DNA of 39,558 nucleotides from Mitosporidium daphniae (taxonomy: Eukaryota): contig NW_013546400.1 of assembly GCF_000760515.2 (NCBI RefSeq), forward strand, positions 62,001 to 101,558. The letters are read 5' to 3'. Under the pieces are notes generated by a model. The model made no database searches, was not told the DNA's origin, and saw nothing but the letters and a program-made list of their open reading frames with translations. This document shows positions 1 through 36,982 of this stretch, in pieces (position 1 is the first letter of the stretch; each line of letters begins with the position of its first letter). The position numbers were made by a program, and so were the translations under genes.

Positions 1-976
1 TTGCTATGCATTTCTTGCATAAAAGGGTTACAAACGCGTGTTCTCAAATCCCAATAGTCAATGCCAACACTTTACATTTGCAAATTTTTTGGTCTTTTTC
101 ATCTTTTCTGGAATAGAAAACCGCGGTTGAAATCCATTGGATGTAAGATCTCTGGGTTTTAGCACACGTCAGAGCACAGCAATTGATCCACTGCTTTTCT
201 CTGGCCGAGTTCTCCAAACTTGATCACAAAATTTAATAGCAATTTTGTACACCTAAAAAAGGGCCGGAAATTCTTGACATACTTTCGGTATGTTATCAAA
301 ACTAACAAAAGTAATCGCAAAGGCACAATATCCGTCCATAGCGATCGCAGGTGATTCTTTATGAGTATAATAATCATACCCTGGTATGTTCATAGTGTGA
401 TGATTTCCTCACATTTTCTATTGATCGATATGTCGGTGTTCCCTTTTCTTCAGCCCTGTCCACAACTAAAAGGAGAATGGAAGGAATGAAGGCGGCTATG
501 AAAGGGATAACGCTAACTATGGAAGGAAAAGCCAAACTCTTGGAGCCCCCATTTTTGTAGTGTTCTTCAGAAAGCTGTTTTCTTGCCTCTTATAGATGGC
601 TTTTTACTCGGGTCTTGGCATCAAATGCAAGCCCTAAATCAAAGAATTACTGAAGGACCAATTAGCTCTGGTCAAACGGCCTGTTTATCAAAGATCCTTA
701 AAGGATTCCATTTATCGATGTAGCAATAATACTACTGAACATGCATTATGTAGATGCTGTGAAAAATTCTCCGTGCATCTCGGGCTTCTAGTAATATCGG
801 TTTGTTAGTCCAGCTCCTCCATCACTAAACGACATTGTTGATAGGCAAAAATATTTCAAATTAAATTTTCCAATGCCTTGTGCACATGAGGGCTTGATAA
901 AATGGCAAGCCAGGATTTAAGCTTGCCAGTGTACTTTAGATTTGTAAAATTACAATATTTTAATTGCATCCCGATC

Positions 977-2517
977 ATGGAAAAAATAGAGGATATCATC
1001 CGACAATCTAACATTCTTTTCGAGGTAGGCTTGATTTTGTTTACGTCCCAGTCTGAAAACATCTCTTCAGCAATTGCATATCTTTTGGTTGCAGAGAAAC
1101 ACGCCAGACAAAACGAGCTTGCAAGTGAAAGTGCACTCATCACCAACCATATTATGTCGCTGTGCTTAAACTCGGGCGATTTTGAGCTCTACAAGTCAAC
1201 GCTAACTACGCTTTGCAAAAAAAGAGGCCAGCTCAAACAGGTACGCCATTCGCTAACTTTTAGACCATCACTTCCCTAGTGCAGCTGGCTCTAGAGCAGC
1301 ATCTGACATTAGAGCGTGACAATGGCAGGCGGGAATCGCTTATTGAAGTCCTGCGGGAAATCACCGATGGAAGAGTATCTTTTTCCCTAATCAATAGGTC
1401 TTTGTGGAGGCTGAACGTGCCAAGCTTGCCTTGTTATTAGCCCGCATTTATGAAGCCGATAAAAAGGATGTACAGGGCGCCGCCCGTATTCTCAACGAAA
1501 TTCAGGTAGCTTTTGTGTCCTATTTTTCAGATTGAGACCTTTGGCTCTCTAAACCTTCAATCAAAGCTGGAGTTTTTACTTGAGCAGATGCGGCTGACTC
1601 TTGAAATTGGCGACACGACAACGGTCCAGATTTTGTCAAAGAAGATGGCCCCTAGGGCCTTTGACGAGCATGAGGCTCTTCGAGCCCGCTACTATGACTT
1701 GCTTGCCTGCTGTAGTCTTCGGCAAGGCGAGTATCTTGCCTGTGCCCGCGCCCTCAAAATGATCTTGGAAAGTGCTGTTTCTAATTCGGAGTTACAGGAG
1801 CGCTATCCGCTTTCCGGGCTTTTGGAGAAAATCATTTGTTTTGTGGTTCTGGCCCCATACTCTCCAGAGCAACAGGATCTCTTGCTCTCCATGAGCAACG
1901 ACGAACGTGCGCAGCAATTGTCTATCCCGCTCTTCTCAATTTTGACTCTCTTTAAAGAAGAGCTGCTGATTCCATCAAGCTCCACTACACAACGTTACGG
2001 GGCAGACCTGCAACGTGTAGCCGGTTCAAAGGCTGTTGCTGGACTCAAGGAACGCATCATGGATCACAATTTGAGGATCATTTCAATTTATTATAAGCGA
2101 ATCTCGCTCGTGCGCCTCTCGCAGCTCCTGATGCCGGATGGTGAGTTTCTAATGGCAATGTACCTCCCATCGACCTCTTATTCTTTTGAATCTCTTTCAG
2201 ATACATCGCTGTCGGCTCCCTCTATTTCGTCAATCGAATCGCCTTTGGCGCTTTCCAAGCCATCAGGGTTTACTCAATTAGAATTGGCAGAGCGACAATT
2301 AAGTTCGGTAATCGCTAGGGGTATTTTGGCACCAAACATTGAGGCAAAGATTGACAGAATCTCAGGCGTGGTCTCCTTTGAAAGAGCTTCCACATCCGTC
2401 GCTCTAGCTTCGTGGGTTGACGGCACCGGTAAAATGCTCAAGGACGTGGTTCATCTCAGCCAGCTGATTGCAAAAGAGGAGGCAGTCCGCCAAGGCGTCC
2501 ATACTGTCAGTCAATAG
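977..2517 (+). CDS. RPN5: 26S proteasome lid subunit Rpn5/PSMD12 (spliced)
   Basis: Removing introns 1025-1051, 1241-1263, 1375-1397 and 1506-1530 gives LCKKRGQLKQ..LREITDGRVFVEAERAKL..NEIQIETFGS..EFLLEQMRL, plus PCI motifs HNLRIISIYYKRISL and AKIDRISGVVSF. A possible extra in-frame intron lies at 2141-2281. Confidence 0.93.
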
Positions 2518-5600: not shown

Positions 5601-6603
5601 AAAGCATTAGGTACCTCGCGCATGCATCCGCCCATCAAGGATTTGTTGCCGCGCCTAACACCGATTCTAAAGAACCGGCACGAAAAGGTGCAACTTCATT
5701 GTATTGAGCTTGTGGGTCGCATTGCCGGTTCGGCCGCAGAAGCTGTGTCACCACGCGAGTGGATGCGTATTTGTTGGGAACTGCTAGAAACACTACACGC
5801 ACACAGGCGCGCCATCCGCAGAGCAGCTATTCTGTCTTTTGGACACATTGCTAAGGCCATTGGGCCTCAAGATGTGCTCTCGACGCTGCTGGCCAATCTA
5901 CGCGTGCAGGAGCGCCAATCCCGTGTATACACCACCATTGCCATCGCCATTGTCTCAGAGGTATGACACGATCATTTGCCTTTATTTTGTTGCTTGTCAA
6001 TTGATTTTGATGCGCTCTTGCTTTCACTTTCGAGTTACTTATGGTTAGGTATGTGCCCCGTTTACGGTGTTACCCGCATTGATGGCTGAATACCGAGTGC
6101 CCGAGCTTAATGTTCAAAATGGTGTGCTAAAGTCCATTTCTTTTCTTTTCGAATACGTCGGCGAGGTCGGCATCGATTACCTTTACGCGGTTACACCGCT
6201 GCTTGTCGATGCGCTCATGGACCGGGACCATGTCCATCGGCAGACCGCTGCCGCTGCTGTGCGCCACGTGGCTTTGGGTTCTGTCGGCCTCGGCTGTGAG
6301 GATGCCCTGCTTCATCTGCTCAATAACGTTTGGCCAAATATCTTTGAACAATCGCCACACGTCATTATGGCGGTGGTAGATGCGCTGGAGGGGCTCTCCC
6401 TGGCCCTGGGTCCCGCCACGGTCTTTTTATACCTTGCGCAAGGGCTCTTTCACCCTGCTCGGCGCGTACGGCAAGCCGCATGGCGCGTCTATAACATGCT
6501 CTACGTGCTGGGCCAGGAGGCCTTGGTGCCGCTTTTTCCAAGTCACGGAGACGTGCTAGACGCACAGCGGTATGGTCGCGATCATCTGTATCTTGTGCTT
6601 TGA
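2700..6603 (+). CDS. SF3B1: Splicing factor 3B subunit 1 (Hsh155/SAP155)
   Basis: RWDATP/TP repeats, [59 protein letters not shown] and [11 protein letters not shown]. One 88-nt intron (5961-6048) joins [18 protein letters not shown]. Confidence 0.97.
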
Positions 6604-10115: not shown

Positions 10116-10234
10116 AACCTACAGCACGCAGTATTCCCATGCGGTCACCCATCATAGTACTGACTGCGCCAGCACTGGCTTGACTTCGGGGATCGGACGA
10201 GACCCGGTGTTTTCCAGTGTGTATGGCCGTAGAT
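10116..10234 (-). rRNA. 5S rRNA (single dispersed copy)
   Basis: The reverse complement ATCTACGGCCATAC...CTCGTCCGATC...GAAGTCAAGC...AGTACTATGATGGGTGACCGCATGGGAATAC...GCTGTAGGTT is 119 nt long. The ends pair (helix I) and T-runs follow as a Pol III terminator. Confidence 0.95.
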
Positions 10235-15434: not shown

Positions 15435-15506
15435 CTCTCTTTCAGAGAATTGAACCCCGGTCACCCGCGTGACAGGCAGATATACTAACCACCATACTAA
15501 CAAAGA
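15435..15506 (-). tRNA. tRNA-Asp(GTC), degenerate / possible pseudogene
   Basis: Reverse complement TCTTTGTTAGTATGGTGGTTAGTATATCTGCCTGTCACGCGGGTGACCGGGGTTCAATTCTCTGAAAGAGAG. It forms a 72-nt cloverleaf with anticodon loop CTGTCAC and discriminator G, but has many G-U pairs and one acceptor-stem mismatch. Confidence 0.8.
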
Positions 15507-19940: not shown

Positions 19941-20826
19941 ATGTCAATTTCCTGGGAGAACGCTTGGGCCACCATTCTTAGCTACAGAGCAGATCACCCT
20001 GCGCCCGTCGACCAGATGGGCTGCAATTCGTGTGCTTTATCAACGGACTCGCCCAACGTAGATGCTTTGGCAATTTAGAATTTAGGCAAGGCGGTTTTCC
20101 ATTCTAGTTGCGTTGCTTTTTTCTTCGCAAACCAAAGACCCACTTACCTATTCAGTTGTTGGGCGGCTGAGGGCTTTTCTTCAGCCTGAAGATTTTTCCC
20201 CAATCTCCATTCTGGCTAGCTTTGATATCAATGACGAGCATTCTACTCAATCCCTGGAGAGCCTTTTAAAACCCATTTCGTTTTTTAAGACAAAGGCCAG
20301 GTATGTCTTTTTCACTTTTTTAAGAAATCTTCTCAAAATATCGGCCATTTTGGTGGACAAATATAATGCCGATGTTCCTGACTGCCTCGATGATGTATGC
20401 TCGAATTCCTGACTCTCTAGTTACTAGATCTACCAGGAATCGGAATGAAAATGGTACGTAAATTATGAGCATATACCAAAACATAGGCATTATTGTGCCT
20501 GCAGCACGCCTGGGGAAAGTTTGAACATTGTACCTTGCTGTTTGTAGGACGCTTGGCATATCTGTAGATACCCACATCCATCGGATTTCGAACCGGTTGA
20601 AATGGGTCTCCACAAAATCGCCCGAAGAGACGCGAAAGGTAAAAACGGGCGTTTAAACTTGCCTGCCTTAAAGAAATTAGAAGACCTCATTCCACATGAA
20701 ACATGGCCAAAAGTCAACGCCACACTGGTAGGCTTTGGCCAGACCGTATGCTCGGCCATCAAGCCAAAGTGCACTGAGTGCCCTATAAGCTCGCTATGCC
20801 CCTACTACTTTGAAAGACTATTTTAA
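19941..20826 (+). CDS. NTH1: Endonuclease III homolog (HhH-GPD, 4Fe-4S)
   Basis: [35 protein letters not shown] and [23 protein letters not shown]. Introns 20058-20085, 20301-20324, 20395-20420, 20454-20486, 20519-20547 and 20639-20673. Confidence 0.95.
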
Positions 20827-20851: not shown

Positions 20852-21037
20852 AAACCAGTAGGAACGTGTTCAATCCATGCCTTACGGCGCATTCATCAAT
20901 GACCAAGAACTAGTTCAAGATCTGCTTCACGCTCAGGAAAGAACACCGTGCTTCGTCATCCTGGTTTGGTATGCGCCTTGTTTGAAGAACGAAGACGGGA
21001 CATATACTATACAAATGATCCTGTAAAGTACAGTCGT
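20852..21037 (-). ncRNA. U3 snoRNA (compact, about 186 nt)
   Basis: The reverse complement begins ACGACTGTACTTTACAGGATCATTTGTATAG (GAC, A' and A boxes). It then has AAACCAG-GATGA (C'), GAGCGTGAAGC (box B), TGATGA (box C) and a terminal CTGGTTT that pairs with AAACCAG. TATAAA lies about 25-30 nt upstream. Confidence 0.9.
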
Positions 21038-22144: not shown

Positions 22145-25100
22145 CTAGTTCTGAGGGCCATACTGGCCATCAAGGCGCCTACGCCACTCAAAAAGCAGCT
22201 GAAGGGCGGAACGGGCACTAATTGCATCGAGGTCACACTTTTGAAGCTCACAAAGAATGTTCCGTTCTGCCAAGCCTTTTTTTTGTGCAAGACCTTCTTT
22301 TTCTACCAAATCTTCTGTTTGCTTGTGTTCTGGTATGTCTGACTCGATGTTCCTTAAAATTGATTCCGGAATACCCGCAAGCCGAGCAACCTGCACGCTA
22401 TTAGAAGTTGAGGCAAGGCCAGGCACGATATGATGTAGAAAAATGACGCTTTTTGTAAACTCGTTTGTAATTGCACTCGTTTTCCAAAATACAATTGGTG
22501 AAGATGTACTACCAGCAGCTGAATTTCGACGGTGCAATGTCGATTTGTGGCCTAATGGGGAGCTGTTTGGGCCAAGCGCTTTCCTCGAACCATCTGGTGT
22601 CATCTCATGATCTGCCATGATCCCGCTATTTACCATACCGTTATTTTGATCGACAAAATCAATTTGAGCCTCACCACTCTCCTTTCCATGTGCCTTTGGA
22701 GGAAAGAAAGGGCCGCTGATGCCATCGACAAGCTCAGCATAAAAATGCGTAGCAAATAGCACCCGACTGCGATTCATATCAATCAGATACTGCGCTACGG
22801 CTCTTGCAATAGCCTTACCTTCGGATGGGCTTGTTCCTCGCCCAATCTCATCCACAATCACCAACGAACGCTTGGTGGCGTGTTTCAGAATGGCAGCAGT
22901 CTCCTTCATTTCTAGCATGAAAGTGGACTCATTTGTCGTTAAACTGTCAGAAGAGCCGATTCTGGTAAAAATTGCATCGGTAATTCCAATTCGGGCAGAG
23001 TCTGCTGGGACGAAAAACCCACATTGTGCCATTAAAACGATCAGCGCTGTTTGGCGCAAAAAGGTGCTCTTGCCGCCCATATTTGGCCTAAAGGGTTAGA
23101 GGGGAATGATACCCGGTTATCAGTGCAAACCGAGCCCCTTTTGTACTGGTTAGATTGTCCTTTTCTTCTTGAGCAAGTATGCAATCATTCTTAACAAATT
23201 GGATCCCGGTGTGCGTGAGTCCAAGTTCAACAACGGGATGGCGACCGCCAAATATTGAAAGCCCAGTCCTAGAAAAAGGTGATAGACCGTGCGTACCCTT
23301 CGTTAATGTCGGGTCGTACATATCCTCGAATGGTTGCCACACGTGCCATGGTGGTGAGAAGATCTAGTATCGCGAAGGCCTTGGCCAGGGCCCGTATTGC
23401 AGGCGCATGCGTTATCATCTAACGATGAGCCCATGGTAATTGGCTTCACCTGCTCGCAGATCTTTTTATAAATATCCATTTCCAACTTAAGAGACTCTTC
23501 TTGATGTGTTTCCGAAAAGGAACACAAAGCATTAAGTTCTGCAGTCTGGTATCGAAAGTACTGTGCTGTTTTAGTTTCCTGAACAAAGATGGGTTCAGTA
23601 AGCGGACCATCCCGCAGCGGGACTTCGACAAGCATGTAGTTGTTTCGATACTCGATGATCTTTAGCGCAGAAACACCTACATACCGTTGATATACCGTGA
23701 AAGATGTCCAGAAATAATCGATAAAAGCAACATTAGCAAAGTTAACACGAATGGAATGCATTTTTACCTGTAAGTGTCCGATAGTGCGCCTCCAGTGTGC
23801 CGATCTCTTTTTTTAATTGGCCTTTCTTCTCCCGAATGGCCGCCAATGCCGGTCCAAATTTGGCAATTGGGTATCTAGGAAATTAGCACCACTGATCGGT
23901 ACGATATGGAAATAAAGTTCCCCTCGGAAAGACGATGTGGCGGGTCATCCACTATAATTTCTCCCAGAAATGCGCACAGGTTGGTATTAACTCCGGCTGA
24001 AAGCCCATCCATTGCCTTTGCGAGAATTTCAATTCCAGTTGCAGAGAGAATAGCGCAGCAATCCAGCACCTCTTTGGCACAGATAAGAGACTTTCGAATG
24101 CTGGAGAGATGCCGCAAAGATCCATATGCATCTCGTCGCAGTATGATGGTATTGAGGTGCCGTTCGAGGTCTGTCAGCTCTTTAAGATAGCCACGAATAT
24201 TATCTACAAGCTGGAGATCTTTAAAAAAAAACTCCACACCATCTAGGCGATCGCGTATTGTCGAAACATCCGTGAGAGGTGCCTGCAGCCATTGCGAAAG
24301 TAAACGGGCGCCCATTGGTGTTTGGGCCATGTTGAGAGTTCCAAAGAGGGAGCCTTTCTCAGTGCCTGTGCGAGAGCCTGTAAGAATCTCTAATGCACGA
24401 AATGCCTGTGAGTCAATGGTGAGTGGCGGCGACCGCGACTGGAAATGCTTTGCCGCCATGGAGTTGAAGAGCGTTGTGGCGCTCTCGACCTGTGTCTCCT
24501 GAACATACTCCACTAGGCTTGTCAGGGCCAGCTCCTCTTCTCTTGTTGCAGGGGAAAATCGTTTGACGATGAGTCTCGCGTTTGGAGAGAGATTTAATAA
24601 ACGCAAAGTGATACAAATAGGATTTCCACCTTTGCAGCGGCTAACACGCTCTGCAATTTCCGTAATAATGGCAGAGTATTGTTGAGAGACGAGGATTTCT
24701 GTTGGTGATAGCTTTACCAAGTACTGCTCGATGCTTTCTAACGTTGTGGATGCAAATGAGATATCTCCGGTTGAAATGTCGATCCATGCAAGACCCATAC
24801 GTCCTGCCACAGGAAATGAAGATTCATCCAAGGGAGATGGAGTCATAGAGGTGTCAGACCTCAATTCGCCACTGATGGCAAGTAAAAAATTGTTATTAGA
24901 AGCTGACAGTACAGAGTCTTCAGAAAGCGTACCGGGCGTGATGATGCGAGATATTTTTCTTTCAAAATTCCGTCCGCTAGAGGGATCTGTAGACGGGAAT
25001 TGATCGCAGATCACCAGTTTGTATGTGTTTTCGGTGACCAACTTACGCATATGCGAACCGGCTTGGAAAGAGGCTACGGGAATTCCGGTAAAGTAGAGTA

Positions 25101-25795: not shown

Positions 25796-27960
<2,165 letters not shown>

Positions 27961-31965: not shown

Positions 31966-32225
31966 CGGCATTTTGGTTCAAAAAAAAGAGTTCTTGGTAT
32001 GCGGTAAGGGGTATGGTTCCCTTAACCCTAAATCATACAAAGATTAAAATGCCGCCATTGATCCATAAATAGCAGCCTTCAGCAGCTATTGCAGTATGGG
32101 GATCCTCAATTTACATTTAACGATAGAGAAACATCACATGCAGATCCAACCCATTTAATGCCCAGGTACTGTGTATTTTGTAAAGAATTTCCACGTGCTT
32201 TGTTTGAAAGCAGAGCAACCTTTTA
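31966..32225 (+). ncRNA. Candidate structured ncRNA (H/ACA-like hairpin-H-hairpin-ACA core at about 31994-32118, with flanking stems)
   Basis: Intergenic, with no convincing ORF. Stems TTGGTATG/CATACAA and TAAGGG/CCCTTA, H-box-like AGATTA (32041-46), hairpin ATTGA..TCAAT, ACA at 32113-15 and a further hairpin at 32196-32217. Confidence 0.45.
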
Positions 32226-32269
32226 TACAAACTTTTATGATGTGCTTAAATTACTGTCGATTGCAGATC

Positions 32270-32813
32270 TCATTCGTCTAAATCAAGACCGAATTTGGCA
32301 TATTGCTCTCGAATAGTCGTGCCCTCGCATTCGGCAATTTTCCCCAAAGCCATCTGTCCGGCATCTTTTAGTTCATTGTAGGTATGTAGGGAATCGATTT
32401 GAGATCTAACAGTCCTAAAAAACAAAAGCTATCGTCGATACTTTTCGCTGTTTTCTATACTAAAGCCCTCCTGTTCAAGTTGAGATATCGACTCTTTCAA
32501 TTGAGCAATGGCATGGGAAACCTGCTCACGCTCTCCTAACCAGAGATATATTAACAGGCAATTTTCGGCAACGAAAATTGCAGAAAGAGGCCTGTCTGAA
32601 GGCGGCCCATTATATTCTTTCCATATACCGGATAACTGGCTCTAATTACGTAAAACATGACGCGTATATCACTTGGGACTCAATGTCAATAATGCCTTTA
32701 GCAGAGGGTTCCTCTTCAATTGTGAAGATTGTATCTGAAACTTTTGTGGCTTCTTCAAAGCATAAAATTGATAACCCGTCATCATAGTGGAAGAATTTAT
32801 GGCTCGACGGCAT
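32270..32813 (-). CDS. SWI5: Swi5/Sae3 recombination mediator (absent from the ORF track)
   Basis: The last exon (after intron 32415-32441) reads TVRSQIDSLHTYNELKDAGQMALGKIAECEGTTIREQYAKFGLDLDE*, the Swi5 signature LHxYNxxKDxGQxLxG. The upstream exons (ATG 32813, intron 32642-32672) are tentative. Confidence 0.85.
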
Positions 32814-32840: not shown

Positions 32841-33638
32841 ATGTTTTTATTTGGATCCAGAAAGTCGCCACAAGAACTGTTAAAAGAAAACCAAAGGACC
32901 ATCAATAGGGCAATCAGGGAGATTGATCGCGAGCGGTTATCTCTTGAAACACAAGAAAAAAACTATCTCGTCACGGCTAAACGAGCAGCTACGTCTGGAC
33001 ACATTTCCTCCGTAAAAATCATAGCAAAGGATGCCATAAGGGTACGGTCGCAAATCAACCGATTCTTCGAATTAAGGACACAGCTCCAGGCAGTTTCCCT
33101 GCGGCTGCAAACCTTAAAATCCACACAGACAATAGCAACGGTTATGATGGGCGTGGCAAAGGTTAGAGGATATTTTTTCATTTCCAGGTGAGTTCATGGC
33201 AATCATATAAATCTGCAGGCAATCAAAGCAGTAAATAAAAAGACCGACCTTGATGGCTTGTCGAAAATCCTACAGGATTTTGAACAGCAAAACTCAATTA
33301 TGGGGGTCAAGGAGGACGCATTGGATAGCACCTTGGATTCAATGGTGATGGAGCAGATGATAGACGTAATATCAGCAGAAGAAAACGGCGAGGCTGCAGC
33401 AGATGAGCTTACGCGCAAGATATTAGAAGAAGCTGGAGTTACGGCCGATGCACCAGTAGTGGCAATTGACCCTTTTCTTTAGGTAAAACGAGCAGCTGCG
33501 CCAACGCTTGAACCCCTTGCACCGGCCCAGCTTCGAGACTCGCTCTCGAAAAAAATCGAGCTCACCTCTGAAAATGGTCCCCTCAACAGCAAGGATACCG
33601 AACTGGAGGCCAGGCTGCACAGATTAAAAGATAAATAA
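32841..33638 (+). CDS. VPS2: ESCRT-III subunit Vps2/Did4 (CHMP2)
   Basis: MFLFGSRKSPQELLKENQRTINRAIREIDRER, TQLQAVSLRLQTLKS and the C-terminal MIM ELEARLHRLK. Intervening sequences at 33162-33218 (doublet) and 33456-33482. Confidence 0.93.
33162..33218 (+). other. Two abutting tiny introns (26+31 nt) with a zero-nt exon
   Basis: AAG|gttagaggatattttttcatttccag|gtgagttcatggcaatcatataaatctgcag|GCA, restoring MMGVAK|AIKAVNKK. Confidence 0.78.
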
Positions 33639-35365: not shown

Positions 35366-36848
35366 TCAAGCCTTTCTGGGAAAGAAAGCTATTCCCCGTC
35401 AGCTTAGATCAATAATTTGGGCTGGTCTGACCAATATATTGGGATGAGGACTAGTGTCCGTATCTTCTTCAGTAAAAGCAAGCGAGGTATATTTGATCGA
35501 CCTTGTAGCTATTGGGGTCAACACTAATTGAGGATCATTGTTTTCCTTGCGTGTTTGTGCGGTCAAATTTGTGGTGTCGCTCAAATTTCCATCGCCTTCA
35601 TCAAGATTCTCGGACACATTTTGATAATAAATAGATAGTGAATGCCTATCCCCAAAAGCTACCGTGTTACAAACCAAAGGTGACGGACGCTCGGATTTAA
35701 CTGGAATTGGATGGTAAAATATCTCTTGAAACTGCGTTTCATCTATCAGAATGGGACTCTTATTCTTGTCGATAAGGAGTGATCGAAGTGGATTGAAAAA
35801 ACCCCCATCGAAATTGGAGCATGTTTTCGTGTTGAAGGCAATATTTAGATTTGAGTATCCGCTGATTCTGCTCAAGAACCCCTATCAGTTGTTTAAACGA
35901 GGCCCTTTGCTCAGAATCAATCAAAACATCTTTCTCTTCAATGGTAAATACAAGCAAGGAAAGCTCTGAAATTCGAGCCTTGTATTTCCGAGAAATAAAG
36001 TCGAGCGTTCCAACGGGGCTAAAAAGATGAACGTAGTCGTTCCGAGGAAAAGATTTGTAAGAAATGCACTCCCTCGAATACAAATATGGATGTTTTCTTT
36101 GATTTTGAGCTAGGGCAGAGAAATTATGAGCCAAAATTGAAGGCGAGGCGACTTTTGACTTTAGTCTCCATAGCACTTTCCGCTGCTTCCAAAAGAAATG
36201 TCGAGCGCAAATTAAAATATCGTCATTCAACGGGGTTCTTTTCACAGGAAAGTGCATGCCGATAAACTTAATTTGGCTTATGTACAAAATACTGGATAAA
36301 CACACTTGAGTAGAGTTCGCTTGAAAAAACTCTTTGTTGAGGATTTTGATTTCAATGTAGCCATCTTTTATGGAAAAAAGGGAGCCAACGAGGGATCTTC
36401 GGTTTCGTGCTAAGGTCATTTGGCAGAGAAAACTTTGTGCGCCTTTGGAAATGGCATATTTGATCATCTTTCTTCCATCTGTTGCAAAATCATCCTAAAT
36501 AAAAAATGACAAAGCTACCTTGAGAAGCTGGACAATCGGATAGACGTCCTTTAAATTGTAGAACAGTGAAAAATAGTTTTTTGAAGACGGAAAGATCTGG
36601 CAAGGAATGCAATGTTCTGGCTTGGCTTGTAAAAGAGTTGTATTTCGATCGTCAATGTTGATGTAATATTTGTCATAAGATATAAAACAGCTGGAAATAA
36701 TACTTTCTATCCAGGAATTTCGAAGCCAAAACGCAAGTACACCAAGGTTTGGCTGCTCAATTTTGCCTCCAACGCCAGGGACATGGGTGCACTCTGCGAT
36801 CCGATCAGATGCATCTGATATGGACCCGTTCGAATTGCAATCATTCAT
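35366..36848 (-). CDS. Hypothetical protein (3' structure unresolved)
   Basis: ORFs 36495-36866 and 35760-36467 join in frame via the 24-nt intron 36495-36518. ORF 35399-35875 overlaps in another frame. No family was recognised. Confidence 0.45.
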
Positions 36849-36982
36849 AAAAAGAAGCCAGCCCAATCAACCGGAATAGGGTTGATGGAAAGATTATACA
36901 ACTGACAACTATTGTTAGGGTTACGCTGGGCAATTTGTATTTGGCGCATTAAAATTTATTGAAATTTAAATTATTTTGTTTT

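Follow-up and report, generated by a model that had tools for sequence, protein, structure and literature searches.

Abutting minimal-size introns in Mitosporidium daphniae as candidates for recursive splicing

How is an intervening sequence removed when it looks like two complete introns joined end to end? Mitosporidium daphniae is a parasite of water fleas and, according to the excerpted text of PMC6349667, an early-branching relative of the microsporidia. Its introns nearly all measure 23-36 nt in our hand annotation of a 39.6-kb window, by which we mean the whole stretch of DNA analyzed here. In the gene for VPS2/CHMP2, a member of the Snf7 family, the coding sequence is interrupted by a gap of 57 nt composed of two intron-sized units that abut, with a zero-length exon between them. 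We propose that ordinary splicing probably removes this gap in two successive reactions by way of the zero-length exon, a reading drawn from the sequence of the gap, its recurrence in a second gene, and the rules followed by the single introns around it.

Reading frame and splice signals of the VPS2 gap

An earlier note on this DNA had divided the gap into 26 and 31 nt joined at CAG|GTGAGT, and this division holds at the positions given in Table 1. The same note stated that removal of either unit alone shifts the frame and that removal of both yields MMGVAK|AIKAVNKK, colinear with CHMP2, and our analysis agrees. Retention of the gap brings an in-frame TGA at the unit join, single removal of unit 1 or of unit 2 leads to a frameshift into stops, and removal of both gives an open protein of 238 aa. 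None of 17 aligned homologs introduces a gap less than 16 columns from the junction (17 of 18 were used; a 502-aa protein was left out for length), and the Pfam Snf7 profile places its positions 1-92 on exon 1 and resumes on exon 2. Among the frame-keeping single removals considered (23 listed), only 33162-33218 is colinear with the homologs; a 42-nt GC..GAG option inserts five residues. Because retention or one-unit removal gives stops and full removal restores colinearity, the whole 57-nt gap must, as judged from the encoded protein, be removed, and nothing from either unit is expected in productive mRNA.

Table 1. Positions of the VPS2 features and of the other long gaps in the window
Feature	Position	Strand	Details
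VPS2/CHMP2 (Snf7 family) exon 1	32841..33161	+	107 codons, last codon AAG
VPS2 unit 1	33162..33187	+	26 nt, GTTAGA...CAG, U-rich; branch-like TTCAT, A at 33180 (-8)
VPS2 internal zero-length exon junction CAG|GTGAGT	33185..33193	+	cut at 33187/33188; the relative P0285 has a homologous stretch
VPS2 unit 2	33188..33218	+	31 nt, GTGAGT...CAG; weak branch-like ATCAT, A at 33205 (-14)
VPS2 exon 2	33219..33458	+	Snf7 profile resumes at position 93
VPS2 ordinary single intron	33459..33482	+	24 nt
VPS2 exon 3 to stop	33483..33638	+	full protein 238 aa
Polo kinase (CDC5/PLK1) doublet	27685..27734	-	26 nt with GC donor (27709-27734) + 24 nt (27685-27708)
Polo kinase triplet	27478..27567	-	27 nt (27541-27567) + 30 nt (27511-27540) + 33 nt (27478-27510)
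Unstacked SF3B1 intron	5961..6048	+	88 nt, without internal YAG; control
Unstacked MutS-homologue intron	23677..23767	-	91 nt, without internal AG; control

The gap carries no letter changes or indels in four DNA runs from two studies, which may include the source of the assembly. The five sequencing runs examined consist of DNA-like contigs without intron joints and carry nothing on expression. No annotated full-length M. daphniae VPS2 protein was present among the matches in cluster look-ups and a search of longer proteins. In the ordinary 24-nt intron further downstream in VPS2, an alternative donor 3 nt upstream also keeps the frame. A two-intron gene for a 161-aa protein (32212-32813, minus strand), in which the exon tested gave no Pfam hit, lies head to head with VPS2, its start 28 nt from the VPS2 start codon.

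Each VPS2 unit has its own donor, branch-like adenosine and acceptor, and a length within the 23-36-nt range of this genome. The general donor consensus is CAG|GTRAGT. The internal donor matches it at nine of nine positions, the best score in the window (at most eight in the 56 single introns), and the sequence left after excision of unit 1, AAG|GTGAGT, still matches at eight of nine. The earlier description of the acceptor as strong is overstated: measured against the genome's own profile, which is mostly GTA...TAG, all four VPS2 sites fall in the 18th-47th percentile, below or near the median. The branch-like adenosine of unit 1 stands at the modal place, as -8 or -9 accounts for 25 of 63 motif hits in single introns, a count of motifs only. 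Across all seven units of the three stacks found in the window, a branch-like motif lies between -14 and -7 in six, the exception being one unit of the polo kinase triplet, compared with 41 of 55 single introns and 24 of 114 decoys. In length, the units are indistinguishable from single introns (Mann-Whitney test of 7 units against 55 singles, p=0.57), and in six of the seven the U content is below that of most singles.

Stacked and unstacked gaps in the window

We annotated 61 intron sites by hand in 18 genes, comprising 56 singles of 23-36 nt (median 27 nt for 55 of them) and five gaps longer than 45 nt. Statistics rest on 55 singles or, where stated, on 56, the additional one being a 35-nt intron at 20639-20673; both the 23-36-nt range and the 23-nt threshold applied below derive from this annotation, in which the same expectations played some part. 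All 17 gene models that we translated are open. After splicing, our models of SF3B1 and the MutS homologue give exactly the NCBI M. daphniae proteins, the POP2 model agrees with its NCBI counterpart across the 270 residues compared, and a polo kinase exon is 100% identical to an NCBI protein named for this species. The intron counts exclude an optional in-frame stretch at 2141-2200, the gene at 1-830 (minus strand), whose reading frames are fragmented, and a frame change near 35862-35927, an ambiguous intron with eight options of 22-49 nt in a gene (35399-36866, minus strand) whose tested exon gave no Pfam hit. The window also holds, all on the minus strand, a U3 snoRNA (20854-21037), a tRNA (15435-15506) and a dispersed 5S rRNA copy (10116-10234) at which several contigs meet.

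The earlier claim that three of the five clearly required gaps over 45 nt are stacked was reproduced in our annotation: the gaps of 50, 57 and 90 nt are divided into abutting units, and those of 88 and 91 nt are not. Likewise, the zero-exon architecture does recur, as had been noted, in an unrelated gene on the other strand, where polo kinase carries a doublet and a triplet, and in aggregate the stacks lie far beyond chance. The earlier note took this architecture for a likely genome-wide splicing mode; over the 39.6 kb covered here, stacking is a minority architecture, seen at 3 of 61 annotated sites and in 2 of 18 annotated genes. It is not obligatory, since the unstacked 88- and 91-nt introns occur in the same window.

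The polo kinase stacks behave in translation as the VPS2 gap does. Every partial removal ends in a stop (two of two for the doublet, six of six for the triplet), and the spacing produced by full removal is found in 67 of 104 polo homologs, with 36 not scorable by the pattern and one outlier. A 38-nt alternative for the doublet that uses a GT donor adds four residues; this spacing occurs in none of the homologs scored, and the added residues in no distinct homolog row shown. The NCBI polo model P0259 removes the same 90 nt as the triplet. At the doublet, both this model and P0019 run into the GC-donor unit and lose 20 conserved residues of the kinase N-lobe, which is likely an annotation error caused by misreading of the doublet and illustrates why stacks matter for annotation.

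We asked how often such divisions arise by chance using 20,000 shuffles under three nulls, counting as success a full parse into 23-36-nt units at YAG|GT, with the length range taken from our own annotation. The VPS2 split arose in 1.7%, 2.6% and 5.0% of shuffles, the polo doublet in 0.6-1.2%, and the polo triplet in 0.015-0.13%. For at least three of five long gaps to be stacked, the chance is 7.5e-8 to 1.2e-6, the upper value coming from the most lenient nulls. VPS2 alone is therefore suggestive, only modestly beyond chance, and because its split arises in up to 5% of shuffles, the weight of the case comes from recurrence; the set of stacks is not chance. A snoRNA host or a hairpin as the cause of the long gaps was not supported, since none of the five matches Rfam at the gathering score and none has a stable fold (z-scores +1.0 for VPS2 and +1.4, +1.3, +0.75 and -1.06 for the others).

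Relatives and the origin of the stacks

A protein from a relative, P0285, is 83% identical over exon 1 plus read-through and has been translated into the VPS2 gap. Out of 79,089 windows, 33184-33210 gives the best fit to its last nine codons, which include the stop codon; 5 of 27 positions are mismatched. This fit implies a first unit of 31 nt rather than 26 and forces YTNAC with the A at -7. The junction is compatible with YTAG|GTGAR, in which the A and the T of AG|GT, known here from protein read-through, occupy wobble positions. Outside the signals, some 10 of 13 determined bases are retained as well, and the flanks are not saturated. Given the wobble positions and neighbors of which roughly three quarters are retained, P0285 does not prove selection on the junction. 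The two-part layout of VPS2 nevertheless probably predates the split from the P0285 lineage, with the length of unit 1 having changed within the normal range. Near the end of VPS2 exon 1, 44 of 150 representatives break from the family sequence, and 13 of these (P0285 included, two doubtful) have a valine codon at exactly the intron site, which suggests that the intron position is old and widely shared. A metagenome scan for related loci returned one distant locus (L001, 43% identity), without an intron at this site, and a scan of prokaryote genomes yielded none among 37 candidates.

Units that share a stack resemble one another no more closely than random introns do: for all five pairs, 49-71% of random single-intron pairs score as high (61% for VPS2). 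This rejects a recent tandem duplication of one intron, and any duplication must therefore be old. The least certain part of our proposal is that an old intron grew by a unit added at its edge, which would by now be too diverged to reveal the repeat. The same 8-nt word occurs on the plus strand in unit 2 (33198-33205) and across the 3' intron-exon junction (33218-33225), whereas single introns reach at most 5 nt (n=55); seen post hoc, it is a possible trace of local duplication. An exonic AAG precedes all three stacks and 3 of 56 singles, and an AG precedes all five long gaps and 17 of 56 singles. In this small sample, noticed after the fact, the AG before the gaps is consistent with slippage between an exon-end AG and an intron-end AG.

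Routes of removal and comparison with known systems

The single introns of the window follow a simple rule. In 55 of 56, the acceptor is the first C/T/A-AG at least 23 nt from the donor, and the one exception is a 3-nt NAGNAG shift. Within the five long gaps, all four internal YAGs at least 23 nt from a donor are directly followed by GT, compared with 10 of 201 such AGs in exon flanks, and no AGGT occurs inside the 56 singles. The absence of internal YAGs from the 88- and 91-nt introns has a chance probability of 0.18-0.26 and 0.10-0.13, respectively, and is not significant alone. Eight exons open with GT after an acceptor, and three of them have a C/T/A-AG 23-36 nt further on; a branch-like motif is present in none of these three and in all four downstream stack units (p=0.03).

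From this pattern we infer that the spliceosome commits to the first C/T/A-AG at least 23 nt from the donor. In VPS2, such commitment would mean a cut at 33187, which would not be passed over. If unit 1 left first, AAG|GTGAGT would be regenerated as a donor; if unit 2 left first from CAG|GTGAGT, the acceptor of unit 1 would be placed against exon 2. Either order would restore a usable site. In the simplest mechanism, a good proximal acceptor could not be passed by the spliceosome, so that longer gaps would persist only when free of AG, like the 88- and 91-nt introns, or with a donor after every internal YAG, like the gaps of 50, 57 and 90 nt. A hard ceiling at 36 nt does not follow, as the 88- and 91-nt introns are apparently removed in one piece.

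These two introns also lend some plausibility to a different route, in which the 57 nt leave mainly in one step from the donor at 33162 to the acceptor at 33218 and the internal AG|GT is a rarely or never used relic of intron duplication or of the loss of a small exon. Human introns shorter than 1,000 nt that contain recursive sites mostly form conventional lariats (PMC10156609, in excerpt), P0285 has diverged too little to prove selection on the junction, and the word that unit 2 shares with the 3' junction may record a duplication. We nevertheless regard one-step removal as unlikely: an unused relic should decay like its surroundings, yet all four junctions are intact although the units have diverged, and the reaction would have to skip a YAG with a branch-like adenosine at -8, something that single introns do only by 3 nt.

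It is also conceivable that one-unit removal is a terminal event whose frameshifted product feeds nonsense-mediated decay and tunes VPS2 and polo kinase, with the productive mRNA made in one step. All partial removals do create premature stops, and polo kinase has two stacks. However, such stops are unspecific and expected of any stack in coding sequence, and a one-unit product still has an entire intron of ordinary size, whose later excision would be expected; we consider this regulatory role very improbable. An even lower probability attaches to chance or artefact, in which AGGT has arisen by accident within an ordinary 57-nt intron of VPS2, or the gene model or the assembly is in error. The frequency of the VPS2 split among shuffles and the manual annotation of the sites allow for it, but the recurrence at three of five gaps (about 1e-6), the same letters in four DNA runs, colinearity with homologs, the identity of the SF3B1 and MutS models to NCBI proteins, and the homologous junction in P0285 all speak against it. 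For the set of stacks, chance or artefact is largely refuted.

Two-step removal, the reading we favor, would place these gaps near several known systems. Zero-nucleotide-exon recursive splicing at ratchet points has been described in Drosophila and vertebrate introns typically longer than 10 kb (PMC13149111, in excerpt). As at ratchet points, the M. daphniae gaps have an acceptor AG followed by a donor GT, and stepwise removal would leave no exon. They differ in that the whole gaps span 50-90 nt and the pieces are complete introns of minimal size (24-33 nt). Among the features of recursive splicing, VPS2 has the AG|GT, the branch and acceptor context and, as deduced from the protein, nothing kept in the mRNA; at 57 nt it lacks the classical host intron of many kilobases, a feature that the mechanistic definition does not require.

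A further parallel comes from U2 introns of the fungal lineage that a zero-length exon splits in two. Recursive splicing has been reported for a 336-nt intron of SPNCRNA.445 in S. pombe (10.1101/226894, in excerpt) and for a 375-nt intron (210+165) of the protein-coding gene BOT1 in C. neoformans (10.1101/224170, in excerpt). In the excerpted texts, these cases number one or two per genome among thousands of introns, the BOT1 pieces exceed 150 nt, and the evidence includes RNA proof. M. daphniae, in contrast, has three such sites among 61 in 39.6 kb, including a triplet and a GC-donor unit. The stwintrons of ascomycetes, in which two U2 introns are removed consecutively (PMC6616335, PMC7138796, both in excerpt), are likewise complex intervening sequences of two U2 introns. 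However, the inner intron of a stwintron interrupts a splice element of the outer one and forces an inside-out order, whereas the M. daphniae units abut with neither interrupted. Each VPS2 unit has an intact contiguous donor and acceptor, so the gap is not a stwintron, and in the excerpt of PMC6616335 abutting introns form a class of their own. Among the literature matches listed, which mostly leave subscription papers aside and exclude supplements, none dealt with tiny introns that are stacked or abut one another in Mitosporidium, Rozella or microsporidia, and the excerpted texts of PMC13685798 and PMC6349667 do not mention them. Zero-nucleotide recursive splicing is already known, though for much longer introns; two-step removal in M. 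daphniae would extend it to some of the smallest.

Recursive splicing is explained as a way of coping with very long introns. If units of 24-33 nt are removed one by one, it would instead arise incidentally from strict short-range intron definition, and spliceosomes would be able to assemble back to back on a zero-length exon even at minimal size. Because the genome of the species is public, the stacks provide a natural test of whether the first AG is selected and whether introns grow by whole units. More tentatively, and with slightly more doubt than confidence, the same logic might extend across the Rozellomycota, with Rozella at one end and the early microsporidian Mitosporidium at the other. 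The first usable AG from about 23 nt onward would be taken, and introns would lengthen only free of AG or by whole mini-introns. Recursive splicing would then be routine and constitutive at a few percent of sites, on the smallest scale yet, as an old trait of the lineage that yielded the microsporidia.

The unstacked long introns have features of their own. Both (5961-6054, plus strand; 23671-23767, minus strand) have AG|GT at each end. The SF3B1 exon that follows the 88-nt intron opens with GTATGT, a typical donor in this genome, without an acceptor in range, and a long intron in this core splicing-factor gene could be regulatory. The optional in-frame stretch at 2141-2200 (plus strand), in what we take by resemblance to be a proteasome-lid gene, is a 60-nt GT..CAG segment without an internal YAG; it lies within an apparent insertion and may be a third unstacked long intron.
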